From Alphaproteobacteria bacterium (GTDB lineage: Bacteria > Pseudomonadota > Alphaproteobacteria > Rs-D84): 64,000 nt of DNA. Location: NCBI GenBank assembly GCA_031549365.1, contig JAVBPX010000003.1:8703-72702 (forward strand). Reading direction: 5' to 3'. Each line of letters begins with the position of its first letter. Within the stretch, counting starts at the first letter, position 1. Of this stretch, positions 1,973-47,097 are shown one piece after another. The translations under genes and the position numbers were made by a program. The notes under the pieces are model-generated. The model was not told the DNA's origin. It made no database searches and saw only the letters and a program-made list of their open reading frames with translations.

Positions 1973-2087
1973 TTTGGTTTCCTTTGGTTAGCCCCCCTAT
2001 TTTAACCATATTGTTTATAATTTCAAGTGAATTTTTGAAAAACGGTTGCAAAATGCCGTATTCAGGTTATAATACAGGGACAATTAT

Positions 2088-3839: not shown

Positions 3840-3846
3840 CTTTAAA

Positions 3847-3872
3847 AAACCGTGTATTTCACGGTTTTTTTA
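3847..3872 (+). terminator. rho-independent terminator after argS
   Basis: Hairpin aaccgtg-tattt-cacggtt followed by a T-run. Confidence 0.6.
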
Positions 3873-4062
3873 TTAAAAGCGCCATCTCTCTGGACAAAGA
3901 ATCCCCCTGTGTTATCAAAAAATTTTATAACCTGGGGATAATACATATCAACAATCAAAAATTTCATTTAAAAAAAAATATATTTTAATGCACTTTTGCC
4001 TTGCGCGACCCAGTGATATTTTAGTATTGTGTTCCTGTGAAGTGTGGGAGCATTATGGAAAG

Positions 4063-10000: not shown

Positions 10001-13000
10001 ATTTGATTTTGGATGGAAATAATTCCGTATTCCGCGGCATATATAACCAAACGGCGGGCAGAACCCTTGTTGATTCCACAAGTTTGATGTTTAATGGCAC
10101 AAATAATATTTCAAACAGTATTTTGGAAATTTCGGCATTGACTGTATATGAAAAAGCAAACATTGGCAACAATGGTCAACTGATACATACCGCGGAAATT
10201 GCTATAACTTCGGCAATTAATGATGGAAATACAAATTTACAGTTTATTGGAACTGGCGGCAGCATGCTGTTCGATGCATCCACGTCTTTGGCAAACGGAA
10301 CCAATTATAATTTGGCCAATAAAATTGATAACGGCAATTCAAATACTGTTACTTTTAGTAAATCAAATGTTTTATTGGGGGCAACAGATTACACAGGTGG
10401 AACCACATACGCATTTAGCAATTCCACGATTGATTTAAATTCTGGGGCACTGAACAATGTTGTATTTTCCAAGACCAAATTAACCAATGCAAAGCTGTCA
10501 TTTGATACGCGTTTTGCAATGTCCGGAAGCGATCCTGTATTAACATCAGATACATTTAATGCGGGCACATTATCAGGGGACAGCACGATAAACATCGGAA
10601 TAATAAGAATTTTGAACGATGATGCGGACACAGGACTGTCCGGGATGTATACGTCCCAAGTATTGTCTGATTCATCGTCTCTGACCTTTGGCGGATCTTT
10701 GGACACGATGTATTTGTCTACGAATGTTTATGAATACGAGGTTACAACCAACGGGAAAAACGTCCAACTGTCTGTTGTAAATGCTGCGGATATAAATTCT
10801 TTGTACAGAATGAACGACACAGCAAACAAACGCGGATTTAATATATCATATTTTTCTGGCTCTGCTGTTTATTACAACATCGGACAAAGTTTGGGCATAA
10901 CCAAAGACGGGGAATTTATAGTCCAAGGTTTTGACAATGATCCAGAACATGGTATAATTTCCGGTGAAATAGTTGATCAAAACGGCGATTCAACTGACTC
11001 TTATGGCTCATTCTTTAAACTGGCCGGGGCTACGATTTTTACATTGAAAAACCTGACTATCGAAGACGCGTATTCTGTTGGTTCTGGATCTGTGCTGTCT
11101 GTGACTGGGGCAGCGTCATCCGCATTGGTTGAAAATATGATATTGCAAAATAATGAATCCGTCGGAAACGGTGGTGCTGTTTATGCGACTGCTGGGGAAT
11201 TGCATATCGGGCAAGCAATTTTTGATTCGAATAAATCCGGTGCAAATGGTGGGGCGATTTATAATTCGGGTAATACATCTTCTGTTGGGACAACAAAATT
11301 CGAAACTAATGTCGCTGTTTCAACCGGTGGGGCGATTTATAATTCGGGCACCATCAGCTTTGCCGACTTGGTTGAATTCATTTCGAACAGATCGGTTGAT
11401 GGTGCGGCTGTTTATAATACTGGGACCACTGGATTTAACGGCGTTACAAATATACAGTCAAATATCGCCACAGGCAACGGTGCTTTATATAATTCTGGGA
11501 ACACTACATTCTATAACGAAGTTAACATGATCGCAAACTCGTCTTTAAACGGCGGTGCAGTTTATACAAATGGCGGCTTGTTAAGCCTGAGAGCTTTGGC
11601 AAACTTTGAAAACAATAATGCAACAACAAGCGGTGGCGCATGGTATATAAATTCTGGAACAATAACAGTTCTGGACGAATTGATACTTGACTCTAATTCT
11701 GCGAACGCTGGAAATGGCGGCGCAGTATATGTATCCAATGGCGGCACATTAAACATAAACGGTGATGCAACAATATCGGATAACGATGCTCTGTCTGGGT
11801 TCGGTGGCGGAATATATCTGGCTGGAAATATGAATCTGGGCGGAACATCAGCAACAGATATTGTGTTCAGTGGAAATTCTGATAGCTCTGGGTTAAACGA
11901 CGTTCACATTGCGAATACTGGCGTATTGTCTGCAATTGGCTCTGGCACATACAGCTTTGATGGGGGCATTTCTGGCGATACAGGATCCGCAATATCCGTC
12001 AGTGGTGCCGGGGCCCGATTCAGCGCAGAAATGACCGACTTTATCGGAAATTACACTCAAAGTGGGACTCTGTCGTTATCGCAAATATATGGTATATTAA
12101 ATGCAAATTATACTATAACCAATGGGGTCGCTCAATTCATCGATTCTGGATTATCCGCGGGCAAAACGATCACTGTTAATGGGAACGGTATTGCACAATA
12201 TTTGGGTTTAAATTCTGATAATCTGGGAACTGTTACAGGGTCTGGGACATTGGTTGTTGCCAACACATTGACCAATACTGGCACGATTGATGTTGGAACA
12301 TTGCGCATTAATTTTGACACCATAAACGACGGTACTATTGATTCTGATTCAACAATTATAAATGCGGATGTTACCAATAATTCCGCAATATCTGGAACCG
12401 GGACAACAACAATTATGGATGGTGCCAATTTATTAAATCTGGGCACAATTCAACAAAATCGATTAATTATAAATTCTGGTGCAATAACTGAAACAATTGC
12501 TGATGATTTGACGATTGCTAATGGAATTACAAACAATGGAACACTGATATTTAATGGCGGGACCAATGCAAACGTTATATCTGGGAGCGGCCTTTTACAA
12601 ATTATTGATGATGTAAATAACACTGCTTTGATTTCCATTGGAGATGTAGAAATCATATCCGGCAAAGAATTTAATTCCAACGCATCAAAAATTTCCGCAT
12701 CAAATGCCATACAGAACCAAGGTTTGTTGAATCTGTACGGCAATGGCACATGGACTTCTGCCGTAACGGGGACAGACGGAACCACAACATTTGGCAATGG
12801 CACTCTTAATAATACCGCCACAATCCAACAAAAGGGCTTGGTTGTAAATGGGGATGGTATATTTATTACTGATGGTGGATTAATACAAACCGGCGACGAT
12901 GGAATAATAGTAAACGGCACACTTAATGTTACCAGGGGGAATTTGACCGCTCAAACAATATCCTTGGTATCGTCTGGACCATCTGATGTTCCGACATTTG

Positions 13001-26857: not shown

Positions 26858-27673
26858 TTATTCATCCATTGCTTTTAATACAACGTCTTTTAATTCATTT
26901 GGCATCATACCTGTAATGCTGTAACCACAATCAACGTGGTGAATTTCACCAGTAACCGCAGATGAAAGCCCCGAGAACAAATACAGCGCAGCACCCGATA
27001 CATCATCCAATGTCATGTTGCGTTTTAATGGTGTTAAATCTGCGTTTAATTTCAACATTGCGCGGAAACCGCCAACGCCAGACGAAGCCAATGTCATAAT
27101 TGGGCCCGCAGAAATTGCATTAACACGGATATTTTTTGAACCCAAATCGCACGCCAAATAACGAACCGACGAATCCAATGCAGATTTTGCAACACCCATA
27201 ACGTTGTAATTTGGGACGGCTTTTTCACCACCGAAATATGTCAATGTTACGATTGAACCGCCATCGGTCAACAATTTTGAGGAACGTTTCGAAATATCAA
27301 CTAATGAAAAAACCGAAATATCCATTGTGTTTTTGAAATTTTCACGACTTGTGTCAGCATACATTCCGTTTAATTCGCTTTTATCAGAAAAAGCAATAGC
27401 GTGCAAAACGAAATCCAATTTGCCCCATTTTTTTTCAATTGCGTCAAACAAAGCATCCATTTGTTCATCGTTTTGAACGTTTGTTTCCATAACGAAATCC
27501 GCATTAATTGATTCTGCCAATGGGCGAACGCGTTTTTCCAACGCAGGCATCGCATAAGGCATTGCAATTTCGGCGCCATGTTCGTGGCATAATTTCGCAA
27601 TCCCCCAAGCCATGGACATATCGTTGGCAACACCCATAATTAAACCGCGTTTGCCCGCAAGTAATTTTGTCAT
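26858..27673 (-). CDS. fabI: enoyl-ACP reductase (NADH), FabI
   Basis: MTKLLAGKRGLIMGVANDMSMAWGIA... SDR fold. The start is placed at the conserved MTKLL rather than the ORF-track start. Confidence 0.85.
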   Translation of the reverse strand: MTKLLAGKRGLIMGVANDMSMAWGIAKLCHEHGAEIAMPYAMPALEKRVRPLAESINADFVMETNVQNDEQMDALFDAIEKKWGKLDFVLHAIAFSDKSELNGMYADTSRENFKNTMDISVFSLVDISKRSSKLLTDGGSIVTLTYFGGEKAVPNYNVMGVAKSALDSSVRYLACDLGSKNIRVNAISAGPIMTLASSGVGGFRAMLKLNADLTPLKRNMTLDDVSGAALYLFSGLSSAVTGEIHHVDCGYSITGMMPNELKDVVLKAMDE

Positions 27674-27806
27674 AATGTTTTCCTTTTTGTTAAACAGAGC
27701 CCCAGAATACCACCCAAACAATCAAAAGTCAATTTTTGATATATTTTGTTGACAAAGCCGATATTAACGTCTATATTGTGAATAAAATCAAATACGAGGT
27801 GATAAC

Positions 27807-28190
27807 ATGGTTAACAAAGACACTATTATTATGGCGAACGAGCTGAGAATCATCGCAAGCCACTGGAAAGTAATAACAGACATGTTTAAATTAATCGAAA
27901 AAACAATCACCCAATTTAAACGCGATGCAAAGAGTATTGTTAGATCCAAACAAAGCGAATTGTTTACTCGGCACGCATCAGAAATTCGCGGATACGCCAA
28001 TGTAATAACAAGCCATTATCGCGAAATTAAAAAAAGCAAACAAATTATTACCAACTTGAAATTCGCAGAAAAAGAAAGATTGGAATACGAATTAGCCGCA
28101 GAAATTAGCAATACGCACGCATTTGAATCCAATTTCAAAAGCACCAAGGCACAATTAAAAGAATTGGGATTCCAGGGATTACATCGTTAA
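27807..28190 (+). CDS. hypothetical alpha-helical protein (ORFan cluster 1)
   Basis: 127 aa with no recognisable domain. C-terminus is ..LKELGFQGLHR. Confidence 0.5.
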   Translation: MVNKDTIIMANELRIIASHWKVITDMFKLIEKTITQFKRDAKSIVRSKQSELFTRHASEIRGYANVITSHYREIKKSKQIITNLKFAEKERLEYELAAEISNTHAFESNFKSTKAQLKELGFQGLHR

Positions 28191-28204
28191 AACTGGGGGT
28201 TAAA

Positions 28205-28612
28205 ATGGGAAAACAAGAATTTGAAAATAAAATTCGAAACGATTTAATGATTTTCAAAACAAAAATGGATTTTTGTTTAATCCAGGTTGTTTCTATGTCT
28301 GAATTCTTGGATAATTTTGAAATGAAAGTTGGCGAACAAATTGGACAAAATAGTTTAAATCACATTTCTGCATCTGTTGTAAAAGAGCAAATTTTCTATC
28401 TGTTTCGCATTTTAAAACCGTTACGCATTGCCGCAGGACAAGTTGAAAACCGATTAAAAAAATTAAACGCTTTTGACTATCGCCAAAACCATGAATTAAT
28501 TGAATTGATGAATATTGCTATGTCTGCCAGGGAAAAATACGATCGAATAATTCGCGACAATGCCGATCGATTTCAACGATTGGGATTGATAAAAAGCACA
28601 ATGACCAAATAA
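28205..28612 (+). CDS. hypothetical protein (ORFan cluster 1)
   Basis: 135 aa. C-terminus is ..NIAMSAREKYDRIIRDNADRFQRLGLIKSTMTK. Confidence 0.5.
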   Translation: MGKQEFENKIRNDLMIFKTKMDFCLIQVVSMSEFLDNFEMKVGEQIGQNSLNHISASVVKEQIFYLFRILKPLRIAAGQVENRLKKLNAFDYRQNHELIELMNIAMSAREKYDRIIRDNADRFQRLGLIKSTMTK

Positions 28613-28680
28613 ACATGCTTGACACAAATTATTAATTTGTGGCAAACCATAAACAGGATTAAAAACCAAAAGGATGAAAT

Positions 28681-29367
28681 ATGTTGTATGCTGTACAAAA
28701 ACCTCAGACACCTGTTATTGCTTATCGAGGACCTGCAGATGATGCATTAAATAATAAACCTGGGGAAAAAAGATCCGAAGTAAAATTAAAACCGCACGAA
28801 AGGTTACAGCAAGCAATTGTTGATAAAAAAATTACGCTAAGCGAAAACGCAAGCGAAGATCAAACAATGTTTAACATTGGGAATTTACGTAAATATATTA
28901 AAAAACAAAAGCAAATTGATGAAATTCCAGAAACTCAGAGATATTTGACCCAGCAAAAGGTTAATTGGACCGTTTACAAATGGTGTCTGGATGAAGTTTC
29001 CAAAACGTTAAATGAATATCACAAAGAAAAAAACAAAGACCCGCACGGCGCGTTTGGTTCGGCGTCCGTTGAATTAACTGCGTTAATGATGTATGCGTTC
29101 GAAGCACACGAACAATTGATTTCAACAAAAAACGTATTGCTGTCTAAAAGGATTAATTTGGATAACGGAAAAAACAATACAAAAAATCCCGAGTTTGATA
29201 AATCAGTTAAAAAAATTATAAAAAAAGATCGCGAATGCGAAAAAATTGAACGCAGCCTTGCCCGACGCTTGTTAAAGGCAAAATTTATTGATATTTCTGT
29301 TGCCGAAGAACAACGAAATAAATTGTGCCGATATATGTATAAAATGGGCTTCTTTAACGAGAGATAA
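28681..29367 (+). CDS. hypothetical Lys-rich protein (ORFan cluster 1)
   Basis: 228 aa and charged. C-terminus is ..RYMYKMGFFNER. Preceded by an RBS AAGGATGA. Confidence 0.5.
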   Translation: MLYAVQKPQTPVIAYRGPADDALNNKPGEKRSEVKLKPHERLQQAIVDKKITLSENASEDQTMFNIGNLRKYIKKQKQIDEIPETQRYLTQQKVNWTVYKWCLDEVSKTLNEYHKEKNKDPHGAFGSASVELTALMMYAFEAHEQLISTKNVLLSKRINLDNGKNNTKNPEFDKSVKKIIKKDRECEKIERSLARRLLKAKFIDISVAEEQRNKLCRYMYKMGFFNER

Positions 29368-29400
29368 AAAACATCCCGGATTATTCCGGGATGTTTTATT
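29365..29400. terminator. bidirectional rho-independent terminator
   Basis: aaaaaacatcccgga-ttatt-ccgggatgtttt, between convergent genes. Confidence 0.65.
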
Positions 29401-29416
29401 GGTGAACACTACACCT

Positions 29417-29737
29417 CTAACCCTTTTTCACATCACGCAATTTTTTATAATATTCGGGTTTTACTGATATTGATGTTGTATAACGATTGATTATGTTGCC
29501 ATCGTCGCCAACCTCGGCCACGGATATTTGTTTGGCCGTTTTCAAATGATTTCGAACACTTGTTGGCATTTCCGTCAAAACCAATCCTTCGACCATGTTT
29601 CTCCGTAACAACGCTGCCCGGCGCCCATCATAAATTAACACGGGTCGTTCAACGGGCGTCATGCGTTCACGCAATACCAAAACCCAGTCGGCATTGCGAC
29701 GCACAATCATGTCAAAATATGGTTCAATTGTAATCAT
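29417..29737 (-). CDS. hypothetical Arg-rich small protein
   Basis: 106 aa, MITIEPYFDMIVRRNADWVLVLRERMTPVERPVLIYDGRR... Its composition differs from its neighbours, with higher GC and more Arg. Confidence 0.5.
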   Translation of the reverse strand: MITIEPYFDMIVRRNADWVLVLRERMTPVERPVLIYDGRRAALLRRNMVEGLVLTEMPTSVRNHLKTAKQISVAEVGDDGNIINRYTTSISVKPEYYKKLRDVKKG

Positions 29738-29808
29738 GTTGATATAATATCATAAAAAAGTCCAAATTTAAATATTTTTGGTATGGAACAAACGTATTCA
29801 TTTATGAT

Positions 29809-30186
29809 ATGATTAAATATATGACAAACGACATTAACGACATTATGAAAACAATCCAATCAAAATTGGAAGATCCAAACCGTGGCGATGTTTTGCGTAA
29901 CGCAACCGCACCTGAAAAAACACCAATCCAATCGATTGTCAAAAACTCAACTGTCGCGCAACAGGCAACTGGGCCTCAGCCACTACGATTGTCACCACAA
30001 AATATTACTTCGGAAATTTATATAATTGCCCCATCTCAAATAAAATTGTTGTCGGCCGCATTATCAAAAACATTGGCAGGATCACTGAATTTACGCGCAT
30101 TAACACCAAAGATTCAACAGGTTTTGGACACCGCATTGATTGATACAATGAAATCTATGAAACGTACAGGATTTAAAAAAAGTTAA
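29809..30186 (+). CDS. hypothetical protein
   Basis: 125 aa, Ser/Thr/Gln-rich and low complexity. Confidence 0.4.
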   Translation: MIKYMTNDINDIMKTIQSKLEDPNRGDVLRNATAPEKTPIQSIVKNSTVAQQATGPQPLRLSPQNITSEIYIIAPSQIKLLSAALSKTLAGSLNLRALTPKIQQVLDTALIDTMKSMKRTGFKKS

Positions 30187-30786
30187 TTATTTTCCAACAA
30201 CGTGTCGAATATATCCCGGCACAATGTCATCAGAAACAATATCCGAAGATATTATTTTTGCGCCATTTGGCAATATAAACCTGTTTACATCTAATTCCGT
30301 CGATATCGTATCAAGATTGGGATTAGAGCCCAAGTCAAATTTTAGATTATTAACAGAATTTTTATCCAAACCGTTTGAATACATATGAATTTGAAATATT
30401 TCGCTACCACTATTTTTCATAATTGTATTAAAATCCAGCGGATCAATTTCTCCATTACACATCGCATATAGAAATGCGTTTGAAACACAAATTTTTGAAG
30501 GATCCAAATATTTCAGAATTTGCCATGCTGGGATTTTTGGATTGCGTAACTGAAACATTGCGAATCCTTTGGGAAAACGAAAGATTACATCCGGGTAATA
30601 ATTGCGAAGCAACATTAATTTTCCAAAATTGAATTGCAATTCGCCCCAAGGCAAAAATTCAGACATATTAAAATCAAAAACTTTATCACCGCGATCAATG
30701 CTGGGCAAATAGCCAAAATCCAATAATTTTGTAATATTAATTGGCGCTTTCTGAGAAATTTGTTTTGTATGATGAAAGTATTTCAA
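30187..30786 (-). CDS. hypothetical protein
   Basis: 199 aa with no recognisable motif. Confidence 0.45.
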   Translation of the reverse strand: MKYFHHTKQISQKAPINITKLLDFGYLPSIDRGDKVFDFNMSEFLPWGELQFNFGKLMLLRNYYPDVIFRFPKGFAMFQLRNPKIPAWQILKYLDPSKICVSNAFLYAMCNGEIDPLDFNTIMKNSGSEIFQIHMYSNGLDKNSVNNLKFDLGSNPNLDTISTELDVNRFILPNGAKIISSDIVSDDIVPGYIRHVVGK

Positions 30787-30847
30787 GTTATTTATCCAGG
30801 TTATGTGCGGGCCGGATAATGTACCAAAATAATTTAAATGTCAAGAA

Positions 30848-31146
30848 AATAAGAGAGGGATCAATAAGCCGGATTCTGTCATGGACGATGATTCATCTGC
30901 GCAATAATGTTACCATTATACGTCAAGCTGCCTACCCGGTGGCATTGGGGAACACAATATTACCACCCTATTTGGCATTGCTGCGGACAGAGTTTACCGC
31001 GTTTCACTCCGCACTTAAACGGCTCGTCTCTGTGGCACTGGTCCTGGGGTTGCCCCCGGTGGGCGTTACCCACTGTCCTGTTCCCAGCAGTCCGGACTTT
31101 CCTCGGACATGTTTCCATGTCCGCCATCGTCTTGACCCCTCGGGCA
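30848..31146 (-). ncRNA. rnpB: RNase P RNA, bacterial type A, reduced (about 300 nt)
   Basis: The minus strand contains GAGGAAAGUCCGGAC (P4 5' strand), GGUAACGCC, AGUGCCACAGAGA, GGUAAACUCUGUCCGCAGCAAUGCCAAAUAGGGUGG, CCGGGUAGGCAGCUUGA and ACAGAAUCCGGCUUAUU (P4 3' strand). P1 pairs gaggggucaa with uugaucccuc. It is a GC-rich island in an AT-rich genome. Confidence 0.85.
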
Positions 31147-31270: not shown

Positions 31271-33904
31271 ATGTTGTGGATTAAAATGTTGGGCAAAATC
31301 ATTGGATCGGCCAATGATCGTGAAATTAAAACTTATTCAAAAACTGTTTCATTAATTAACGATTTGGAACCAAAATATCATGCTATGCAGGATGATGAAT
31401 TACGTCATCAAACTGAAATATTTCGCGAACGTTTGAAAAATGGTGAAACCGAAATGGATATTTTACCGGATGCTTTTGCCGCTGTGCGCGAGGCGTCAAT
31501 CAGATCATTGGGAATGCGTCATTTTGATGTACAATTAATCGGTGGTATGGTTTTGGTTGATGGCAAAATTGCTGAAATGAAAACCGGCGAAGGAAAAACA
31601 TTAGTTGCAACATTGGCGATGTATTTAAAGGCTTTGTCTGGCCAAGGCACACACCTGGTTACCGTAAATGATTATTTGGCGGCACGCGATGCCGAATGGA
31701 TGGGTAAATTATACAAATTTATGGGATTGAGTGTCGGGATTATTCAACATGACATGAACGATGATGAACGCCGCAATGCGTATGCGTGCGATATTACGTA
31801 TGTTACAAATTCAGAATTGGGATTTGATTATTTGCGTGATAATATGAAATTTTCAGTTGAACAACAAGTTTTGCGTCCTATGCACTTTGCAATCGTTGAC
31901 GAAGTCGATTCTATTTTAATTGACGAAGCGCGCACACCATTAATTATTTCAGGCCCGGCCGAGGATTCATCAGGACTATATATGTCAATTGATAATGTTG
32001 TTAAACAATTAAAGCCTGAACATTACAAAAAGGACGAAAAAGACCGCCATGTTACATTAACCGAAGAAGGCGTCGATTTCATTCAACAGATTTTAATCAA
32101 CGAAAAATTAATCGAAGGAAACAATCTGTATGATTCTATCAATTCGTCCGTTGTTAATCATATTCAGCAATCATTATTGGCGCATTTAATGTATCAAAAA
32201 GATGTTAATTATGTTGTGCGTTCGGGCCAAGTTATGATTGTTGATGAATTCACAGGTCGCGTACTAGAAGGTCGCCGCTTTTCCCGCGGATTGCACCAAG
32301 CGCTGGAAGCCAAAGAACACGTTGAAATTCAGCCAGAAAATCAAACGATGTCATCCATTTCATACCAAAATTTATTCCGAATTTATCCAAAATTATCAGG
32401 AATGACTGGTACCGCCATGACCGAGGCGACAGAATTCGAAGAAATTTATAAATTACAAACTGTATCAATCCCAACAAATCGCCCGGTTTCGCGAATCGAT
32501 CATCATGACGAAATTTATCGCACTCGCGATGAAAAATATGATGCAATTTTAAATGTGATTTCCGATTGTCAAAAACGCGGTCAGCCTGTTTTGGTTGGAA
32601 CAATCACGATTGAAAAATCCGAAGAATTGGCACAATTGATTGAAAAAAAATTAAAATTAAAGCCCGCTGTTTTGAACGCAAAACAGCACGAACGCGAGGG
32701 TCGAATCATCGCCCAAGCCGGTCAACCCGGCGCTTTGACAATTGCGACCAACATGGCTGGCCGCGGAACCGATATTAAATTGGGTGGAAGCGCCGAAGAT
32801 TTAATCGCAGATTTGGACGCGTCAGACAAAGATTTCGAAAAGAAAAAAGCCGCAATTTATGATCGCGTCGAAGCCGATAAAATTCGCGTTTTGGATGCCG
32901 GCGGACTATATGTAATTGGAACCGAACGTCATGAATCGCGCAGAATTGATAATCAGTTACGCGGTCGTTCAGGACGCCAAGGGGATCCAGGAAATTCCAA
33001 ATTTTTCCTGTCATTACAGGATGATTTAATGCGAATTTTTGGCGCTTCTCGATTGGATTCAATGTTGGTTACATTGGGATTAAAACCGGGAGAGGCCATT
33101 ATTCATCCCTGGATTTCCAAGGCTTTGGCCAAAGCACAAAAACGTGTCGAAGAAAGACATTTCGAAGCCCGCAAAGAATTATTAAAATATGACAATGTTA
33201 TGAATGAACAACGCTTGGTTGTTTACAAACAACGTCATGAATTAATGACGAATACAGATTTACATGATTTCATAATTGACATTACAACAGATGTTGTTGA
33301 ACAAATTGCAGAAACAAATATTCCTGAAAAATCAACAACCGAAGATTGGAATATCGATCGTATGCGCGAACAAATGTTGATGACTTTTGGTTTGAATATC
33401 ACAGACATGGACAAATGGCGTAACGACCCCGAAATCACAGATGTCAAAGCATTCCAAGCATTGCATGGATTGGCTCGCGATCGATATGATGCCCAACGCA
33501 AACGTTATGGAAATGAATTAATGCACCAAGCAGAACGTCAGGTTACATTACATGCATTGGATACATGCTGGAAAAAACATTTGCAGAATATGGATCATTT
33601 ACAGGCTGGGATTGGGCTCCGCGGGTACGGGCAAAAAAATCCATTGAATGAATACAAAAAAGAAGCTTTTGAATTATTTGCTGAAATGATGTACCATTTC
33701 AAAGTAATGGCGTTGACTTATATTTGTCGTTTGGAATTGTCCCGCGATGATTTGGATGCAATGAAACGCGACCAAGAACAACATGACGAAAATTTGAACG
33801 AAGCCGATGTGGCCGAAAACCAGGGCACAAAAGTTTCCAGAAACGACCAATGTCCATGTGGATCTGGGAAAAAGTATAAACATTGCTGTGGCAAATTGGT
33901 ATAA
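31271..33904 (+). CDS. secA: preprotein translocase ATPase SecA
   Basis: 877 aa starting MLWIKMLGKIIGSANDR, with a C-terminal zinc-binding CPCGSGKKYKHCCG. Confidence 0.92.
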   Translation: MLWIKMLGKIIGSANDREIKTYSKTVSLINDLEPKYHAMQDDELRHQTEIFRERLKNGETEMDILPDAFAAVREASIRSLGMRHFDVQLIGGMVLVDGKIAEMKTGEGKTLVATLAMYLKALSGQGTHLVTVNDYLAARDAEWMGKLYKFMGLSVGIIQHDMNDDERRNAYACDITYVTNSELGFDYLRDNMKFSVEQQVLRPMHFAIVDEVDSILIDEARTPLIISGPAEDSSGLYMSIDNVVKQLKPEHYKKDEKDRHVTLTEEGVDFIQQILINEKLIEGNNLYDSINSSVVNHIQQSLLAHLMYQKDVNYVVRSGQVMIVDEFTGRVLEGRRFSRGLHQALEAKEHVEIQPENQTMSSISYQNLFRIYPKLSGMTGTAMTEATEFEEIYKLQTVSIPTNRPVSRIDHHDEIYRTRDEKYDAILNVISDCQKRGQPVLVGTITIEKSEELAQLIEKKLKLKPAVLNAKQHEREGRIIAQAGQPGALTIATNMAGRGTDIKLGGSAEDLIADLDASDKDFEKKKAAIYDRVEADKIRVLDAGGLYVIGTERHESRRIDNQLRGRSGRQGDPGNSKFFLSLQDDLMRIFGASRLDSMLVTLGLKPGEAIIHPWISKALAKAQKRVEERHFEARKELLKYDNVMNEQRLVVYKQRHELMTNTDLHDFIIDITTDVVEQIAETNIPEKSTTEDWNIDRMREQMLMTFGLNITDMDKWRNDPEITDVKAFQALHGLARDRYDAQRKRYGNELMHQAERQVTLHALDTCWKKHLQNMDHLQAGIGLRGYGQKNPLNEYKKEAFELFAEMMYHFKVMALTYICRLELSRDDLDAMKRDQEQHDENLNEADVAENQGTKVSRNDQCPCGSGKKYKHCCGKLV

Positions 33905-33918: not shown

Positions 33919-36900
33919 ATGGATGCGCGTTTTGTACATTTGCGATTACATTCCGCGTATTCGTTATCCGAAGGTGCTATTTTTGTAAAAAAAATTCCGG
34001 ATTTATGCCAAAAAATGGGCATGCCCGCGATTGCAATTACAGATACAAATGCTTTGTTTGGCGCCCCCCTATTTTCAGTTGAATGTAAAAAAAATAAAAT
34101 TCAGCCAATTATTGGTATTACTATTTCTTTTAATCAACACGATGTGTCAGTTACAAATAATTTGCGGCAAAATCAATTGTCCAAAATTGTTTTGCTAACC
34201 ATGAACGAAGATGGATTTCAAAATTTATCCAAATTAATCACTGACGCGTATTTGAGAATCGACAATTTGCATTTGGGCCCATATATTACATTTGATGAAT
34301 TGGCGACGAATAATTCTGGGTTAATTTGTTTATCCGGCGGCGTTAACGGACCAATTGGAATGGCTTTATTAAATAACCAACCCGATTTGGCACGCGATTT
34401 TTCAAAACGTTTTGCTGATATGTTTTCAGACCGTTTTTATATGGAAATTCAACGACATGCAACCGATGATGAAATTAAAACCGAATCAGATTTTTTGGAT
34501 TTGGCGTATGATTTAAATATTCCTGTGGTTGCTACGAACGATGTATATTTCCCAAATGTGGACGCTTTCGAAGCGCATGACGCGCTGTTATGCATTGCGG
34601 CCGGGACCAAGGTAATTGACCCGGATCGTCGTCGCGAAACACCCGAACATTATTTTAAATCCGTGGATGAAATGTGTGAATTGTTTTCGGATTTACCCGA
34701 AGCAATTAATAACACCGTAAACATCGCCAAACGTTGTACATACGTTGTTCCAAATCGCCCACCATTATTACCAAAATTTGCAGAATCGTTCGATCGCGAA
34801 ATTGAAATTTTACGTGAAAAAACAATGACTGGATTGATCGGCCGATTGAACGCTGAAAAAATTCCACAAGATGAACGCCAACAATATTTTGATCAGGCTG
34901 AATTTGAATTATCAGTTATTATTCGAATGAAGTTTCCAGGGTATTTTTTAATTGTTGCCGACTTTATACAATGGTCCAAAGACAATGATATTTTGGTCGG
35001 TCCTGGTCGTGGTTCGGGCGCTGGTTCAGTTGTCGCGTGGTCATTAAATATTACAAATGTTAACCCTTTGCGATATGGATTGTTGTTCGAAAGATTTTTA
35101 AATCCAGATCGTATTTCCATGCCCGACTTTGATATTGATTTCGATCCAGATGGCCGCGATCGCGTGGTTGATTATGTACAAAAAAAATACGGCACGGATC
35201 GGGTTTCGCAAATTATAACTTTTGGTTCATTATTGTCGCGCGGAACGATACGTGATGTTGGTCGCGTGTTTGGAATGCCTTATGGTAAAATGGACAGGCT
35301 GGCCAAATTAATTCCGTCTGGCCCTGGCGCGCCCGGATTACGCGACGCAATTGATCAATCAATTGATATCCAAGAGATGTTGGACGCGGATTCCGATTTG
35401 AAAAAAGTTGCCGAAATTTCCACACAATTGGAGGGGTTATTCCGCCATGCCGGCGTTCACGCGGCGGGTGTTATTATTGGCGATCGGCCATTGGTTGAAT
35501 TGGCCCCACTGTACAAGGATCCATCAAACGAATTACCTGCAACCCAATACGATTTAAAATTCGTCGAAGACGTTGGTTTAATCAAGTTCGACTTTTTGGG
35601 ATTGAAAACTTTGTCCGTTATAAAAAAGGCTTGTTCTCTGATTGCGGAATCACGCGGAATAAAAATTGATATTGATAAAATTCCATTGGACGATTCAGAA
35701 ACATTTAAATTATTAAAATTTGGCAAAACTGTTGGTGTGTTCCAATTGGAAAGTTCCGGCATGCGTCAGGTTTTGGCACAAATGCAGCCAACATTATTCG
35801 AAGAAATCGTTGCCGTTGTTGCGTTGTATCGCCCGGGGCCTATGGCCAGCATTCCGGATTATATTGAGCGCAAACACGGTCGGTCCAAAGTTGAATATGT
35901 TCATCCGTTGGCCGAACCGGCCCTGAAAGAAACATATGGCGTTATTGTGTATCAAGAACAAGTCATGGAAATATCCAAACGCTTGGCTGGATTTACCCCT
36001 GGTATGGCGGATACATTGCGCAAAGCAATGGGTAAAAAAATCAAGGCCGTTATGGACGATTTACGTGTCAAATTTGTCGAAGGTTGTCAAACAAATTCAG
36101 GCATGACCGAAACTGATTCGAACCATTTATATGATGTGTTTGTAAAATTTGCCGAATATGCTTTTAATAAATCCCATTCTGTATGCTATGCCGTTATTTC
36201 AATGCAGACAGCGTATTTAAAGGCAAATTTTCCAGCCGAATTTTTTGCAGCTTCGATGAGTTACGATTTGGCAGATTCCGACAAACTGGCATTATTTATT
36301 GATGATGCAACATCAAATTTTCGTTTGGAAATCGTTGCCCCAGATATTAATAAATCCGGTGCCAGATTTCGTGTTCGCGATAATAAAATTTTGTATGCGT
36401 TGGCCGCAATCAAGGGTATCGGAGTATCTGCTGTAATCCCAATTGTTCGTGAACGCGACGAAAACGGATCATTTAAAAACATAACCGATTTTGCGACACG
36501 TTGTTCCGGGATGTTAAACAAACGCGTATTGGAAGCATTAATCAAAGCCGGCGCAATGGATTCATTATGCCGCGACCGCGCATTACTGTACCAAAATATG
36601 GATGCTATTATTGGATTTGCAGATAAAAATAAATCCAAATGCGGAAAACAAATTTCATTATTTGAAATGACAGATGCAGATGATGTTGGCGACGACAGAT
36701 TAATGTTAAATTTACCACGCACAACACCGTGGACTTTTGGCGAACGCTTGAAACATGAACACAGCGTTTTGGGATTTTATATTTCCGCGCATCCGCTGGA
36801 TCAGTATCGTGAATTAATGGATCGCGATGGATTGGCATGTTCAACCATGTTAAAACAAAAGGCTGACGGGTCAATAGTTCGAATCGCAATGTGCGTTGAT

Positions 36901-37344
36901 AATGTGAACAAACGCACCACGCGCGCAGGCAAACCAATGGTTATAGTTACAGGATCCGATCATGTTGGATCGATTGATGCGGTTGCGTTTGGATTTTCAG
37001 TTGATACTGTTTATAAAACCGCAACATCTGAATCTGCAATTGTTTTAACGGCCAAAGTTTCACAACGCGACGATTCAACATCATTAATGGTCAATGCGAT
37101 CCAACCATTATCCGAATGGGTTGCGTCTTCTGCACATAAAATTGTTTTGGATGTTCATAATCAAAATGCTTTGGCTGATTTAAAAATGGTATTGGATAAT
37201 TTGCCATCTGGCCTCACAAAAATTCACATGAATTTATATTCAAATGGCAAAGTTACATCGATTATATTGCCGCGCTCGGTCCAATTGGATGGCGCATCGA
37301 TTTTAAAATTAAACGAATTGGTTACCCGGGTTTCTATAACTTGA
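33919..37344 (+). CDS. dnaE: DNA polymerase III alpha subunit
   Basis: 1141 aa with a PHP domain (VHLRLHSAYSLSEGA), a polymerase core and an OB fold. Confidence 0.92.
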   Translation: MDARFVHLRLHSAYSLSEGAIFVKKIPDLCQKMGMPAIAITDTNALFGAPLFSVECKKNKIQPIIGITISFNQHDVSVTNNLRQNQLSKIVLLTMNEDGFQNLSKLITDAYLRIDNLHLGPYITFDELATNNSGLICLSGGVNGPIGMALLNNQPDLARDFSKRFADMFSDRFYMEIQRHATDDEIKTESDFLDLAYDLNIPVVATNDVYFPNVDAFEAHDALLCIAAGTKVIDPDRRRETPEHYFKSVDEMCELFSDLPEAINNTVNIAKRCTYVVPNRPPLLPKFAESFDREIEILREKTMTGLIGRLNAEKIPQDERQQYFDQAEFELSVIIRMKFPGYFLIVADFIQWSKDNDILVGPGRGSGAGSVVAWSLNITNVNPLRYGLLFERFLNPDRISMPDFDIDFDPDGRDRVVDYVQKKYGTDRVSQIITFGSLLSRGTIRDVGRVFGMPYGKMDRLAKLIPSGPGAPGLRDAIDQSIDIQEMLDADSDLKKVAEISTQLEGLFRHAGVHAAGVIIGDRPLVELAPLYKDPSNELPATQYDLKFVEDVGLIKFDFLGLKTLSVIKKACSLIAESRGIKIDIDKIPLDDSETFKLLKFGKTVGVFQLESSGMRQVLAQMQPTLFEEIVAVVALYRPGPMASIPDYIERKHGRSKVEYVHPLAEPALKETYGVIVYQEQVMEISKRLAGFTPGMADTLRKAMGKKIKAVMDDLRVKFVEGCQTNSGMTETDSNHLYDVFVKFAEYAFNKSHSVCYAVISMQTAYLKANFPAEFFAASMSYDLADSDKLALFIDDATSNFRLEIVAPDINKSGARFRVRDNKILYALAAIKGIGVSAVIPIVRERDENGSFKNITDFATRCSGMLNKRVLEALIKAGAMDSLCRDRALLYQNMDAIIGFADKNKSKCGKQISLFEMTDADDVGDDRLMLNLPRTTPWTFGERLKHEHSVLGFYISAHPLDQYRELMDRDGLACSTMLKQKADGSIVRIAMCVDNVNKRTTRAGKPMVIVTGSDHVGSIDAVAFGFSVDTVYKTATSESAIVLTAKVSQRDDSTSLMVNAIQPLSEWVASSAHKIVLDVHNQNALADLKMVLDNLPSGLTKIHMNLYSNGKVTSIILPRSVQLDGASILKLNELVTRVSIT

Positions 37345-37856: not shown

Positions 37857-39113
37857 ATGCAAGAAAAAAATGTAAAAATGGCGGTTTTTGGCTGTCGATT
37901 GAACAGTTTCGAAGCTGAAAAAATACGAACAATTGTATCAAATGCGAATTTTGATGATGTGATTGTATTTAATACTTGCGCCGTCACGGCCGAGGCTGAA
38001 CGCCAGGCTCGCCAATCCGTGCGCCGAGCATATCGCGAAAATCCGAACCGAAAAATCATTGTTGTTGGGTGCGCAGCATCGGCCAATGCCGAATTATTTG
38101 CAAATTTACCCGGTGTAATCAAGGTCATAGGGAATCGTGATAAATTTGATATAAATGCATATACCTGTTCCAATGTTATCGTTAATAATCCGATGGCTTT
38201 TGATGAATCTGCGCCAATGCATTTGGATACAATGGTTGAACATTTTGAAAAATTAACCCGCGGTTTCGTCCAAATTCAACAAGGATGCGATCATGCATGC
38301 ACGTTTTGTCTGGTGCGAAAGTTACGTGGGGCAAATAAATCATTCCCATATGAACATATTAGGGCCCAGGCTGAAATTCTGGTCAATCACGGATATCATG
38401 AAATTGTTTTAACTGGTGTGGATATTGCAGGATACCGCGATAATGATGGAGGATTGATATCGTTGGTTAAAAAATTACTAAACGATATTAATGGAATTAA
38501 ACGCATTCGTTTATCATCATTGGATCCCGCATTGGATTGGCGCGAATTGGTTGATTTAATGAATAATGATGATCGTGTTATGCCACACATTCATTTGTCA
38601 ATGCAATCTGGGGCTGATCCAATTTTACGGATGATGGGACGCCGCCATTTGGTCGAACACGTTCGAAAATTGGTAAACTATGCAAATTCGGGTGCACGCG
38701 AAATAACATTTGGATGGGATATGATTACTGGATTTCCGGGTGAATCGAACGAATTATTTTTGGATACACAAAATTTGGTTCGCGAATTAAAACCAACGCA
38801 TTTACATTTGTTTCCATATTCCCCCCGCCCTGGGACCCCGGCCGCGTCCATGACGAACGCCATTCCGAAACACGTGGCGCGGGAACGCGTTGCCGCATTG
38901 AACGAAATTGGACAACGCAATTTATTAAACCATATGATGAAACAAGTTGGAAAAACAGTTGAAATTTTGGTAGAAGACAATGGCGTTGGATACACCCCAA
39001 ATTATGTCCCTGTGAAATTAAACAATCGCCCAACCCCATTTTCAATATTAAATGCTGAATTGACGGATATTGATCATGAAAATATACGGTTCATTGGAAA
39101 TGCCAAAGATTGA
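37857..39113 (+). CDS. MiaB-family radical-SAM methylthiotransferase (MtaB/RimO-like)
   Basis: MAVFGCRLNSFEAE is an MTTase N-terminal domain. CDHACTFC is a radical-SAM CxxxCxxC. There is a C-terminal TRAM-like region. Start is the ATG at 37857. Confidence 0.8.
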   Translation: MQEKNVKMAVFGCRLNSFEAEKIRTIVSNANFDDVIVFNTCAVTAEAERQARQSVRRAYRENPNRKIIVVGCAASANAELFANLPGVIKVIGNRDKFDINAYTCSNVIVNNPMAFDESAPMHLDTMVEHFEKLTRGFVQIQQGCDHACTFCLVRKLRGANKSFPYEHIRAQAEILVNHGYHEIVLTGVDIAGYRDNDGGLISLVKKLLNDINGIKRIRLSSLDPALDWRELVDLMNNDDRVMPHIHLSMQSGADPILRMMGRRHLVEHVRKLVNYANSGAREITFGWDMITGFPGESNELFLDTQNLVRELKPTHLHLFPYSPRPGTPAASMTNAIPKHVARERVAALNEIGQRNLLNHMMKQVGKTVEILVEDNGVGYTPNYVPVKLNNRPTPFSILNAELTDIDHENIRFIGNAKD

Positions 39114-39873
39114 TAAAAATTTATCATCAAAAATATCCCCCTCGCCCCTTGCGGGAGAGGGTCGGGGTGAGGGGTCGCACAGAAAATACGATATCAAAAC
39201 GAAGACTTTTGCAAGAAATTTAAGAAAAAATCAAACAGATGTAGAAATAAAATTATGGTCAGTATTGCGAAATAATAATTTTAAAGATTTTAAATTTCGC
39301 CGACAATTTCAAATTGACAATAAATACATAGCCGATTTTGTTTGTTTGGAAAAAAGGTTAATCATTGAACTTGATGGCGGGCAACATTCAGAAAGCAATC
39401 ATGATAAAATACGAACAAAATATATAAACAAACAAAATTTTAAAATTTTACGATTTTGGAATAATGAAATTAATAAAAATATGGATGGATGCCTGGCCGC
39501 GATTATGAATGAATTGTTAAAAAACCCTCACCCTGACCCTCTCCCGCAAGGGACGAGGGAACATATTGAATCTAGAAAACAATTTAAACGCAACATCGAA
39601 AATTTTATTTGCAAACATTGCGGCACATCGGTCGTTGGCAACGGATACACAAATCATTGTCCAAAATGTTTATACAGTTTGGATGTCGATATTAACCCGG
39701 GCGATCGAGCATCAAATTGCGGTGGGTTGATGAAGCCGATTGGGATTACAGTACGTGGGGATGATTACATAATTCATCATAAATGTGTAAAGTGTGGCAA
39801 AGAACGGCCAAATAAATCATCTCCAAACGATGATATGAATGCAATAATAAAAATATCAAAACAAGAAATTTAA
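39076..39873 (+). CDS. fusion ORF: DUF559 (Vsr-like endonuclease fold) module joined in frame to an RNHCP zinc-ribbon domain
   Basis: The DUF559-like core is ..RNLRKNQTDVEIKLWSVLRNNNFKDFKFRRQFQIDNKYIADFVCLEKRLIIELDGGQHS..ILRFWNNEI. The RNHCP part is FICKHCGTSVVGNGYTNHCPKCLYSLDVDINPGDRASNCGGLMKPIG. The two are joined through translated hairpin repeats. Confidence 0.6.
   Translation: MKIYGSLEMPKIDKNLSSKISPSPLAGEGRGEGSHRKYDIKTKTFARNLRKNQTDVEIKLWSVLRNNNFKDFKFRRQFQIDNKYIADFVCLEKRLIIELDGGQHSESNHDKIRTKYINKQNFKILRFWNNEINKNMDGCLAAIMNELLKNPHPDPLPQGTREHIESRKQFKRNIENFICKHCGTSVVGNGYTNHCPKCLYSLDVDINPGDRASNCGGLMKPIGITVRGDDYIIHHKCVKCGKERPNKSSPNDDMNAIIKISKQEI
39137..39174. repeat. 38-bp GC-rich hairpin element (left inverted repeat flanking the DUF559 module)
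   Basis: cccctcgcccc-ttgcgggagagggtc-ggggtgagggg. It is a perfect inverted partner of 39525-39562. Confidence 0.8.
39525..39562. repeat. 38-bp GC-rich hairpin element (right inverted repeat)
   Basis: Its reverse complement is gttccctcgtCCCTTGCGGGAGAGGGTCaGGGTGAGGG. This matches the left copy over about 28 nt with one mismatch. Confidence 0.8.
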
Positions 39874-41387: not shown

Positions 41388-41846
41388 TTGTTACAAAATG
41401 AAAGTCATAAACCAAAGGATTATATTATGTGGACAAATAAAACATGGTTAAACAAAAAATGGGTTAATTTGCAAGCGATTACGAAAATCAAGAATAAAGC
41501 AGATAAATCATCTGTGGCAACAGAAGCAGAGTTTTCAGATTTTGAAAACGCTGAAATAGTAAAGTTTTTGGATTTGGGATATGGCCTGCGCTATGTTGGC
41601 GGAGCGATAAAGTTATACCACAGCCTGAAAGAGATTATGCCAATACTATCGAAACACAGATCAAACAATTCGGTGGACTTGGTTTGGAGCGAATCTTTGG
41701 AATATGAAATTGGGATAACAAGAGAATTACATCTTTTGGATAAGATTAAAGATTTAAAAAAAGAGCTTGCAGAAGTCGAATTAAAAAACATAGAAAAAGC
41801 GCGTAAATTAGTGGAAGATATGCGCGAAATATCAAACGGAAGATAA
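41388..41846 (+). CDS. hypothetical protein (ORFan cluster 2). The likely start is MWTNK at 41428.
   Basis: No domain recognised. It has a coiled-coil-like C-terminus and an upstream TTGACA. Confidence 0.45.
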   Translation: MLQNESHKPKDYIMWTNKTWLNKKWVNLQAITKIKNKADKSSVATEAEFSDFENAEIVKFLDLGYGLRYVGGAIKLYHSLKEIMPILSKHRSNNSVDLVWSESLEYEIGITRELHLLDKIKDLKKELAEVELKNIEKARKLVEDMREISNGR

Positions 41847-41847
41847 A

Positions 41848-42138
41848 ATGTCCCCATATCCCAGTCCCAGAAAAATTAAAAAATTATGCAATCACCTCAT
41901 CGATTTAGCCCACAGTTCTGGTTTAACTTTTTCAGAACGCCGACGTTGTTTGTCCTTGGCCGAAATGCTGTTAATAATGTCCAACAACCCCAATACCCCA
42001 ATCGATGCGGTTAAATTTACATACGATGTGGCAATGTCCCACGCAAACACAGTTGAATATAATAAAAGAGATCGTTACCTGAAAAATTTAAAGCATTTGG
42101 GACAACGCGCCATCGAAAAATTTAATCTGGGCCGATAA
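41848..42138 (+). CDS. hypothetical protein (ORFan cluster 2)
   Basis: 96 aa. C-terminus is ..DVAMSHANTVEYNKRDRYLKNLKHLGQRAIEKFNLGR, which resembles the C-terminus of the 28205 ORF. Confidence 0.45.
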   Translation: MSPYPSPRKIKKLCNHLIDLAHSSGLTFSERRRCLSLAEMLLIMSNNPNTPIDAVKFTYDVAMSHANTVEYNKRDRYLKNLKHLGQRAIEKFNLGR

Positions 42139-42177
42139 GTTCGGCCATTTTTTTATAAATAAACCCGATATTAATTC

Positions 42178-42205
42178 TTGACAAAATGATTTATTGTGCT
42201 AGATT
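42178..42205 (+). promoter_or_regulatory. sigma70-like promoter: TTGACA, a 16-nt spacer, then TAGATT. RBS AAGGAGAG follows.
   Basis: A consensus -35 box with good spacing, upstream of the ATG at 42240. Confidence 0.5.
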
Positions 42206-42239
42206 ATGACTATAACGACCATAATCAAAGGAGAGCGAT

Positions 42240-42584
42240 ATGGACCGGAATCAATACAAATCAAAATTTTTCTCGGAATCCACACCATTGAACATACCAT
42301 GCGCTGCCGATTTGCTGGAAATGTTCCAAGAAACGCGCGACGTTACCGGATTAAAGAAAAGAGAACGCTCATTACGCGCCCATTTTTATCGTAAATGTTT
42401 ACGCGCCATTAACGAGTGTATAATGATTTCCGATTCTGATTTATGTGAAATGGCAAAGTTCGCACATAAATTGGAAAACATGAAAGAAAAACAAGAACAA
42501 TCAATGTTGCACTTGGATTATTTAAACAGCCCTGCAATTTATGGATCACATTTACGTTATATTGAACGCAACAACGGAAAATAA
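42240..42584 (+). CDS. hypothetical protein (ORFan cluster 2)
   Basis: 114 aa with a strong RBS. Confidence 0.5.
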   Translation: MDRNQYKSKFFSESTPLNIPCAADLLEMFQETRDVTGLKKRERSLRAHFYRKCLRAINECIMISDSDLCEMAKFAHKLENMKEKQEQSMLHLDYLNSPAIYGSHLRYIERNNGK

Positions 42585-42595
42585 GAGGAAAAATT

Positions 42596-43078
42596 ATGAC
42601 AAAAAGAATTAATATCCCTGAAAACTATCGCCCTTCGATAAATGATTTTATTTCATTGAACGACTTGTTATTAAAGCTGAAAAATGTAAAGAGATTATCC
42701 CAACACCGCGCACTAGTTAACACATGGCAAAAACAATGCGAAGCCATTGCTGATTTTTTGGTAGCCCAAGTGAAAAACGATATGATAATAACTCGGAAAC
42801 TCCCAAATCAGGAAAAACATAACATGGCCCGCAATGGGTTTATAACCGATCAAAACCATGTTGATTTCTTTCATAAAATTGCGGATTTTGCATTAAATGC
42901 CCGTCCTATGGTTTCAAATAATGTTTTGAATTCCATTGAATGCTCCAAAGACGATTTCCAGGAACATTATGCAGAAATGGCCCCCATTGTGCATGTTGTT
43001 GAAGATAAAAAGTTTTACAGCCCATTGTCAGAAATCAGGGCCAGCGCAAATTCCAAATATCACCTGGCCAGCAAATAA
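42596..43078 (+). CDS. hypothetical protein (ORFan cluster 2)
   Basis: 160 aa with RBS AGAGGAAAAATT before the ATG. Confidence 0.5.
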   Translation: MTKRINIPENYRPSINDFISLNDLLLKLKNVKRLSQHRALVNTWQKQCEAIADFLVAQVKNDMIITRKLPNQEKHNMARNGFITDQNHVDFFHKIADFALNARPMVSNNVLNSIECSKDDFQEHYAEMAPIVHVVEDKKFYSPLSEIRASANSKYHLASK

Positions 43079-43217: not shown

Positions 43218-44345
<1,128 letters not shown>

Positions 44346-45463: not shown

Positions 45464-45895
45464 ATGAATTATCATATCGACAGACACTATTCAGATGACA
45501 TTCGTGGTCAAAGCCAAAATAAAAAACCATTTGCGGACGCCGCGTCTTTGAATAAATCAATTGAACTATTGGAAGCCATAATCAAAAAATGCAATTCCAA
45601 AAATGGGAATCCTTTCATTGCCGCCAGGGCAATGAAACTGGTTTTTCGGGCAAAAAAGTTGATGGCAGAATCGGAAAATCCCGCATATACAGTTAAAACC
45701 ATTGCAAAAAATGGGCCCGCAAAAGATATCGAACAATTACCACGTGTATTAAAAGCAGACTTGACCCATATCCAAGGCGAGATGGACACATTTATTAAAA
45801 TGGCCAGAGGAAACGAAACCTTGAGCCCTGTTGTAGCAAAGATTATTGGTCTGTGTCTTGAACATATTGCGAAAGACAAAATCCACGGGATATGA
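45464..45895 (+). CDS. hypothetical protein
   Basis: 143 aa with no recognisable domain. Confidence 0.45.
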   Translation: MNYHIDRHYSDDIRGQSQNKKPFADAASLNKSIELLEAIIKKCNSKNGNPFIAARAMKLVFRAKKLMAESENPAYTVKTIAKNGPAKDIEQLPRVLKADLTHIQGEMDTFIKMARGNETLSPVVAKIIGLCLEHIAKDKIHGI

Positions 45896-47095: not shown

Positions 47096-47097
47096 TC

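Follow-up and report, generated by a model that had tools for sequence, protein, structure and literature searches.

Six consecutive small open reading frames (ORFs), here called O1 to O6, occupy positions 27,807 to 30,786 of a 64,000-nucleotide stretch of DNA from an alphaproteobacterium of the lineage Rs-D84 (assembly GCA_031549365.1, contig JAVBPX010000003.1, positions 8,703 to 72,702 of the forward strand; this whole stretch is referred to as the window). They are wedged between fabI and the RNase P RNA gene rnpB, and a sequence-only reading of the same DNA had described them as six ORFans of unknown function and as one set of genes, possibly of the secreted effector or toxin-immunity kind. 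Their presence, coordinates and flanks are confirmed by the ORF list and by Rfam, and so is the lack of a recognisable domain in any of them, with no match in Pfam, NCBIfam, PHROGs or PADLOC. The single gene set, however, does not survive comparison with relatives, since O4 and O5 belong to an ancestral backbone of conserved genes. The region is very likely composite in origin, and the account that we favour overall, in which this backbone has been combined with lineage-specific additions (O1, O2, O3 and O6, the orphans in what follows) and no six-gene module exists, is probably the right one. The locus is, in short, a fairly ordinary variable spot in the reduced genome of a gut bacterium.

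The division between the two kinds of gene is apparent from homology searches. Specifically, in an exhaustive HMMER search of the six concatenated proteins against 1.84 billion representative proteins, O1, O2 and O3 matched only themselves, and O6 matched only itself and, spuriously, a 968-aa tandem-repeat protein (P0014). In the same search O4 has about 19 homologues (93-133 aa, 28-44% identity, best E 8.6e-11) and O5 about 16 (73-128 aa, best identity 45%, E 3.8e-14). The term ORFan in its strict sense is therefore appropriate for the four orphans and inappropriate for O4 and O5, and the same holds for the description of the genes as lineage-specific, which is correct for the four of the six that have no homologue and are absent from the nearest relatives carrying the backbone. 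The orphans were also unmatched in scans of metagenome and viral (IMG/VR) contigs, in 50,697 phage and 72,556 plasmid records (at the DNA level and with tblastn), and, where tested with tblastn, in the fetched loci L001-L179 (including 160 anchored on FabI), and no relative of them was found by PDB sequence searches. Word-index searches with concatenated O1-O3 and O4-O6 remained blank even for the proteins themselves and were not used as evidence.

The six proteins are not related to one another either. The pairwise and profile comparisons that the sequence-only reading had proposed reveal no paralogy among them or with other ORFs of the window (blastp, phmmer --max and hhalign), and the hhalign probabilities among the six are at most 0.3%. 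A C-terminal motif, [KR]xLG[FL], had been seen as common to O1, O2 and O3, but it fits O1 only. More specifically, the only reduced-alphabet tripeptide that the three tails have in common is hydrophobic-G-hydrophobic, and some such tripeptide is likewise common to 11-14% of random triples drawn from shuffled or real protein tails, so that the resemblance is no better than chance.

Gene order in relatives gives the backbone its shape. The closest relative of O5 (P0007) lies in the contigs L094 (GCA_964514455.1), L095 and L096, whose SecA proteins are 73-77% identical to that of the window (69-77% across L081-L098) and whose FabI proteins are 72-75% identical. The full order fabI-O4-O5-rnpB-secA-dnaE is seen in L094, and the order in L095 is that of the window minus O1-O3 and minus O6 (Table 1), with a gap between fabI and the O4-like gene of 59 bp as against 1743 bp in the window, and with rnpB co-directional with the O5-like gene, whereas it is inverted in the window. 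In L095 the O4-like gene and fabI, being co-directional and so close, are probably co-transcribed. The question of whether fabI and rnpB adjoin each other elsewhere, which the sequence-only reading had raised, thus receives a partial answer: in L095 they are separated by the O4-like and O5-like genes only, O1-O3 and O6 being absent. Orthologues with the same neighbourhood and a known housekeeping function, which that reading had named as evidence that would speak against it, are found for O4 and O5 as far as the neighbourhood is concerned, and not as far as a known function is concerned.

L094-96, L098 and L099 all have the divergent O4-O5 pair, and in L098 the O5-like gene of the pair lies 39 bp upstream of secA. 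In termite-gut-type metagenome-assembled genomes (MAGs) and metagenome contigs (L081, L082/83 and L087-93) the O5-like gene is instead arranged head-to-head with secA, and O4-like and O5-like genes each also occur without the other. O5-like genes are found beside secA on every contig examined in this respect (L081, L082/83, L087-93, L094-96 and L098). Judged from these gene orders, O4 and O5 are conserved syntenic genes, the order fabI <- O4 <- / -> O5, rnpB, -> secA -> dnaE is ancestral, and O5 has secA as a constant neighbour and often rnpB as well.

On the same comparative grounds, the spacers that flank O4 and O5 are slots whose lineage-specific genes differ from one lineage to another. 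Examples include the 81-aa ORF between rnpB and secA in L095 (Table 1), a 626-aa LRR_5 protein (2818-4698, minus strand) that separates secA from the O5-like gene in L082, where rnpB directly follows the O5-like gene, and an unrelated ORF (666-932, plus strand) after the O4-like gene of the divergent pair in L099. O6 is absent from the O5-secA spacer of L094-96, L082, L098 and L081, and rnpB, which lies on the strand opposite to O5 in the window, is on the O5-like strand in L082 and L094/L095.

The relatives of the window's FabI belong to MAGs of the order Rs-D84 / Candidatus Enterousia and to gut Alphaproteobacteria, the Rs-D84/Enterousia-like MAG proteins being 79-83% identical to it. Scans of genome and metagenome collections anchored on FabI recovered 160 Rs-D84/Enterousia-like loci (FabI at most 83% identical), and none of these carries O4, O5, secA, rnpB or an orphan within 8-10 kb. 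The ligA-fabI pair is kept in 60/80 and 41/80 of the FabI-anchored loci. The 5′ flank of fabI (5 kb, in L001-L080, from 52 Rs-D84-like genomes) is, by contrast, extremely variable, its 255 ORFs falling into 169 clusters with 133 singletons.

Table 1. Features of the window from fabI to dnaE and of the corresponding locus in contig L095.
Sequence	Feature	Position	Strand	Remarks
Window	fabI (enoyl-ACP reductase)	26858-27673	-	left anchor of conserved backbone; ligA upstream
Window	promoter-like site TTGACA-17-TATATT	27749-27777	+	30 bp before O1 ATG
Window	O1	27807-28190	+	orphan, 127 aa, isoelectric point (pI) 9.8, probably helical
Window	O2	28205-28612	+	orphan, 135 aa, pI 9.4
Window	O3	28681-29367	+	orphan, 228 aa, Lys-rich, pI 9.5
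Window	bidirectional intrinsic terminator	29368-29397	both	common to O3 and O4; 13-bp stem, 6 G-C pairs
Window	O4	29417-29737	-	106 aa; conserved ~100-aa protein family
Window	extended -10 element (TGATATTAT)	29744-29752	-	6 nt before O4 ATG
Window	O5	ORF 29809-30186; start most likely 29821	+	conserved ~115-aa family
Window	O6	30187-30786	-	orphan, 199 aa, TTG start, pI 7.7
Window	promoter-like site TTGACA-17-CATTAT	30816-30844	-	between rnpB and O6; 10/12 consensus match
Window	rnpB (RNase P RNA, class A)	30850-31142	-	Rfam RF00010, 214 bits
Window	secA	31271-33904	+	right anchor of conserved backbone
Window	dnaE	33919-37344	+	after secA; Pfam identification; syntenic in L094
L095	fabI	476-1300	-	
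L095	O4-like	1360-1689	-	38% identical to O4
L095	O5-like	1773-2111	+	
L095	rnpB	2151-2447	+	210 bits
L095	81-aa ORF	2453-2698	-	between rnpB and secA; Asn/Gln-rich, lipoprotein-like signal
L095	secA	2884-5508	+	followed by dnaE

All six ORFs are probably genuine coding genes. Given the base composition of the region, stop-free runs of 127-228 codons have a probability of 3e-5 to 7e-9. Coding potential was scored with a 3-periodic second-order Markov model, for which 22 long housekeeping ORFs from the window served as the training set. O1-O6 all have a positive score in the proper frame (+0.8 to +4.9 nats per 100 nt) and clearly negative scores in the five remaining frames; O1, for instance, scores +1.5 in its own frame as against -7 to -18 in the others, and O2 and O3 reach +3.3 and +3.2. 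Under the same model the housekeeping genes score +4.5 to +8, and the window's other short or poorly conserved genes -0.5 to +5. O1, O2 and O3 are preceded by Shine-Dalgarno sites (GAGGTG, GGGGG and AAGGAT, respectively), and the good ribosome-binding sites that had been ascribed to four plus-strand genes are thereby borne out for these three; O5 lacks such a site. Of the six, O6 is the least certain, because it starts with TTG, has a weak Shine-Dalgarno site and, at +0.8, has the weakest coding score. That the four orphans are expressed as proteins is predicted with reasonable confidence.

The orphans could arguably be something less than genes, that is, O1, O2, O3 and/or O6 might be decaying remnants or chance ORFs in the expanded spacers of a reduced, AT-biased genome. 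Such an origin would agree with the lack of homologues anywhere searched, with a G+C content (GC) of 0.32-0.36 over O1-O3 and O6 as against ~0.40 in neighbouring genes (the flanks have ~0.40-0.43, and O4 has 0.41), with coding scores that are the lowest in the region, and, for O6, with the start codon, the weak Shine-Dalgarno site and a stop codon abutting that of O5. Open frames of this length are nevertheless improbable in AT-rich DNA, the positive coding signal is confined to the proper frame of each ORF, and O1-O3 are closely spaced and have, besides their Shine-Dalgarno sites, a promoter-like site in front and a strong terminator behind. Moreover, domain-bearing genes of the window can be equally low: a fusion of a DUF559 (endonuclease-like) and an RNHCP domain at 39070-39873 (plus strand) has a GC of 0.34 and a score of -0.5, the lowest in the window, and low GC with a weak codon signal is therefore not, by itself, the mark of a non-gene here. 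Decay or chance is thus an improbable origin for these ORFs.

O1, O2 and O3 have the appearance of one transcription unit. The promoter-like site upstream of O1 is the best sigma-70 match of the region (11/12), O2 starts 14 nt past the O1 stop, and O3 is followed by the bidirectional terminator which, in the sequence-only reading, sets off O4. That prediction is well supported, as the hairpin, which lies between O3 and O4, has folding energies of -21.5 and -19.9 kcal/mol for the two strands (z -5.5 and -4.7, respectively), with a T-run behind it on either strand. In an Rfam E-value scan of the region, rnpB was the only hit apart from sub-threshold matches on this hairpin. The three products are all basic, low in Pro and Gly, and probably helical. 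The view of the six proteins as mostly alpha-helical may hold for these, but it fails for O4, whose AlphaFold2 model is beta-rich, and probably for O6, which a crude propensity measure suggests is probably mixed or beta-rich. No signal peptide or transmembrane segment was found in any of O1-O6, the highest Kyte-Doolittle value over a 19-residue window being at most 1.14.

Taken together, these observations suggest the following history and organization. O4 and O5 are a divergent pair of small conserved proteins in reduced-genome gut Alphaproteobacteria related to Rs-D84 / Candidatus Enterousia, with the O4 transcript probably leaderless and read from an extended -10 promoter. By comparison with relatives, two additions distinguish the window: the O1-O2-O3 block stands where the nearest relative has an O4-fabI spacer of just 59 bp, and O6 occupies the spacer between O5 and secA, where rnpB is also inverted. 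O1-O3 would be carried on one mRNA starting from the promoter-like site at 27749-27777, each gene being translated from its own Shine-Dalgarno site, and the hairpin at 29368-29397 would end this transcription as well as that of O4 arriving from the other side. Since the terminator is shared in this way, fabI would be uncoupled from O4. The orphans themselves may be young or fast-evolving accessory genes in two variable slots; tentatively, they can be regarded as dispensable, niche-specific proteins, intracellular or exported by a non-Sec route, and not as housekeeping proteins.

This picture resembles that of ORFan genes in variable genomic slots, in that O1, O2, O3 and O6 are homologue-free, have lower GC and a weaker codon signal, and sit between conserved neighbours where relatives hold different genes. 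It differs in that no mobile-element signature is found at O1-O3 or O6, and in that such additions are less expected in a reduced genome. Rs-D84 genomes are under ~1 Mb, and the lineage is predicted to be an obligate symbiont or parasite in animal guts and to take metabolites from other cells (PMC12306168). As the region illustrates, even a genome streamlined in this way, in a presumed obligate gut symbiont or parasite, retains small variable slots beside essential genes, and lineage-specific genes are gained and lost there.

Several points weigh against the composite account or limit its detail. (i) The coding scores of the orphans (0.8-3.3) lie below the housekeeping range (4.5-8). (ii) The searched representatives stand for 50% clusters, inside which relatives of the orphans at 50-90% identity could hide; at 90% identity the O1-O6 proteins are all singletons. 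(iii) The nearest relatives that carry the backbone, with SecA ~75% identical, are too distant to date the insertions or to fix their direction, and the genes may have been lost in the relatives instead of gained in the window. (iv) The promoter match at 27749-27777 is suggestive only, because a sigma-70 match as good is obtained in ~19% of shuffles of the region. (v) O5 and O6 are convergent, with stop codons abutting at 30184-30189 (TAA|TTA), and there is no terminator-like hairpin between them, so that each transcript must either run into the other or stop within the opposite gene.

The effector interpretation deserves attention in its own right. It takes the six ORFs, or O1-O3 and O6 at the minimum, to be lineage-specific secreted effectors or a toxin-immunity module of a partner-dependent bacterium, and it gains from the lineage-specific nature of four of the six genes and from the predicted life of Rs-D84 as an obligate symbiont or parasite (PMC12306168). 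The relative L094 has a VirB8 gene ~7 kb from fabI, and a 3609-aa surface protein of the window, with polymorphic-membrane-protein (PMP) repeats and an OmpA domain, suggests cell-cell contact. Secretion signals of the VirB/D4 type are positively charged at the C terminus, and the last 20 residues of O1, O2 and O3 are net positive; the three proteins are, however, basic throughout, so that positive tails are not distinctive. The remaining evidence is also unfavourable to this interpretation. With O4 and O5 being conserved backbone genes there is no six-gene set, and the absence of signal peptides, transmembrane segments, paralogy and a significant shared C-terminal motif has been described above. 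Furthermore, no toxin, antitoxin, immunity, defence or effector family was matched by any of the six (Pfam and NCBIfam at E <= 1, PADLOC at E <= 0.1), and no secretion-system gene is present among the scanned ORFs of the 64-kb window. A secreted effector or toxin-immunity module is accordingly hard to credit, and any specific effector or toxin role for these genes is unlikely at best.

Comparison with known small-gene systems points the same way. Type II toxin-antitoxin and polymorphic toxin-immunity loci share with O1-O3 the small adjacent genes (O1 and O2 being 14 nt apart), the lineage-specific distribution and the variable location. They differ in that O1-O3 are all basic, unlike the typical acidic antitoxin and its basic toxin, in that there are three genes and not a pair, and in that no large toxin gene lies upstream. 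A conserved co-directional two-gene operon is likewise absent, given that O1-O3 have no relatives and that the only conserved pair, O4/O5, is divergent. If the orphans did act on partner cells, they would be candidate host- or partner-interaction factors in a not-yet-cultured lineage.

A more ambitious reading would make O4 and O5 a core module of the lineage tied to secA and/or rnpB, with O5 as a small regulator or partner of Sec or RNase P, O4 as a leaderless gene product with a fold new to the PDB, and the orphans as new or fast-evolving proteins of the partner lifestyle. As a complete statement this is a rather long shot. The least credible proposal is that O1-O3, and perhaps O6, are cargo left behind when a mobile element or prophage inserted itself between O4 and fabI. 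Compared with L094-96, the block does stand out as a discrete insertion of 1.7 kb that is lower in GC, brings a promoter-like site and a terminator of its own and is transcribed against the flanking genes, but it has no integrase, transposase or tRNA at its borders, no flanking direct or inverted repeats, and no similarity to the phage and plasmid records, IMG/VR contigs or PHROGs, and other poorly conserved genes of the window are likewise low in GC.

Returning to the backbone, O4 represents a conserved family with a beta-rich fold. It had been described as Arg-rich, and moderately so it is, with 12 R in 106 aa. The AlphaFold2 model (predicted local distance difference test, pLDDT, 92.5) has eight strands and two helices, and Foldseek finds no match to it in the PDB (best E 0.17, with TM scores of at most 0.32 across the listed PDB hits) or in BFVD (best E 0.12). 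With a confident model and no Foldseek match in the PDB, the O4 family is a reasonable target for small-scale structural and functional work. One of 18 family members (not O4 itself) matched the NCBIfam SitI3 immunity family at E 0.005, which is consistent with chance.

The start of O4 is of interest as well. In the window, in L094/L095 and in L098, the sequence TGnTAT[A/T]AT stands 6-9 nt before the ATG of the O4 or O4-like gene, and there is no Shine-Dalgarno site; from this conserved layout we infer that O4 is made from a leaderless mRNA and that this feature is itself conserved. In the O4-O5 intergenic region of L094, L095 and L099, a perfect 10-nt inverted repeat (TTATAACATA / TATGTTATAA) supplies both of the divergent -10 elements. 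An O4-family gene is also encoded at 40-339 of L180, in an organism of 72% GC, with a normal Shine-Dalgarno site and a convergent methyltransferase-like neighbour, which shows that the family extends beyond the gut lineages with reduced genomes.

For O5, the public gene call (P0006) comprises 121 aa and begins at 29821; as it aligns with the family from its first methionine, this is most likely the true start. The AlphaFold2 model shows N-terminal helices, a disordered variable linker and a C-terminal pair of helices at pLDDT 95-98, and the conserved C-terminal segment of the family consists, in alignment and model, of an extended stretch followed by two helices. Two known kinds of protein come to mind. 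The first is PopZ (DUF2497), an alphaproteobacterial protein laid out as an amphipathic helix, a linker and a C-terminal helical domain, to which O5 corresponds in its N-terminal amphipathic helix (xxDEILxRL), its variable disordered linker and its conserved C-terminal helical domain. The O5 proteins are, however, shorter, with a linker that is not notably acidic or Pro-rich, and 0/18 family members match PF10691/DUF2497 at E <= 5.

The second is the ribbon-helix-helix (RHH; CopG/Arc/MetJ) type of DNA-binding protein, suggested by the C-terminal ~55 residues of O5 (an extended segment, xVYVIAP, plus two helices), by an invariant Asn in the inter-helix turn throughout the family, and by the frequent divergence of the O5 gene from its neighbour (secA or O4), as is often the case for regulator genes. 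The strand segment of O5 differs in having no basic residues, and the helices of RHH proteins are shorter than those of O5. No RHH family was matched in Pfam at E <= 5 among 18 members, and no RHH structure appears among the Foldseek PDB matches (best E 3.4). Searches of Pfam, NCBIfam and PDB sequences and with Foldseek thus lend support to neither identity, and the likeness to RHH proteins is one of pattern.

The position of O5 invites a third comparison, with arrest peptides of the SecM type, since it is small, upstream of secA and co-directional with it in the window, in L094-96 and in L098. Here the difference is that rnpB can lie between O5 and secA, and we recognise no arrest motif in O5 from general knowledge of SecM and ApdP. 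A SecM-like leader role is unlikely and was rejected, as most lineages have the O5-like gene head-to-head with secA, an arrangement that precludes translational coupling, and as O5 itself has no N-terminal signal or transmembrane segment.

For annotation, these results mean that O4 and O5 should be treated as members of conserved, still unnamed small-protein families with fixed synteny, O5 starting at 29821, and that fabI starts at the ATG at 27673 and not at the TTG at 27721, as homologue alignments indicate. Beside the corrected annotation, the modest gain consists of four new orphans, two unnamed families and the recognition that O4/O5 are linked with secA and rnpB.

The window is otherwise dense with housekeeping genes, although further ORFs without a Pfam domain occur at 41388-43078, 45464-45895, 46697-47859 and 15004-15672 (all plus strand) and at 18296-19333 (minus strand). 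A CcrM-like N6/N4 DNA methylase with a RAMA domain (43251-44345) adjoins those that begin with 41388-43078, and the no-domain ORFs beside it are probably what the sequence-only reading had called cluster 2. None of the no-domain ORFs of the window, including these, shows similarity to O1-O6. In the relative L094, positions 1-5990 encode VirB8 (type IV secretion), two HTH_3 regulators and a 1173-aa protein without a domain, all within 8 kb of fabI, and no such genes occur in the window. The PMP-repeat protein mentioned above is encoded by a 3609-aa ORF at 3988-14817 (plus strand), which has repeats of the Chlamydia PMP type (E 7e-35) and a C-terminal OmpA domain. It is probably an enormous adhesin of the cell surface with an anchor in the cell wall, and a giant adhesin is a notable possession for a lineage with genomes of under ~1 Mb that is predicted to depend on partners.

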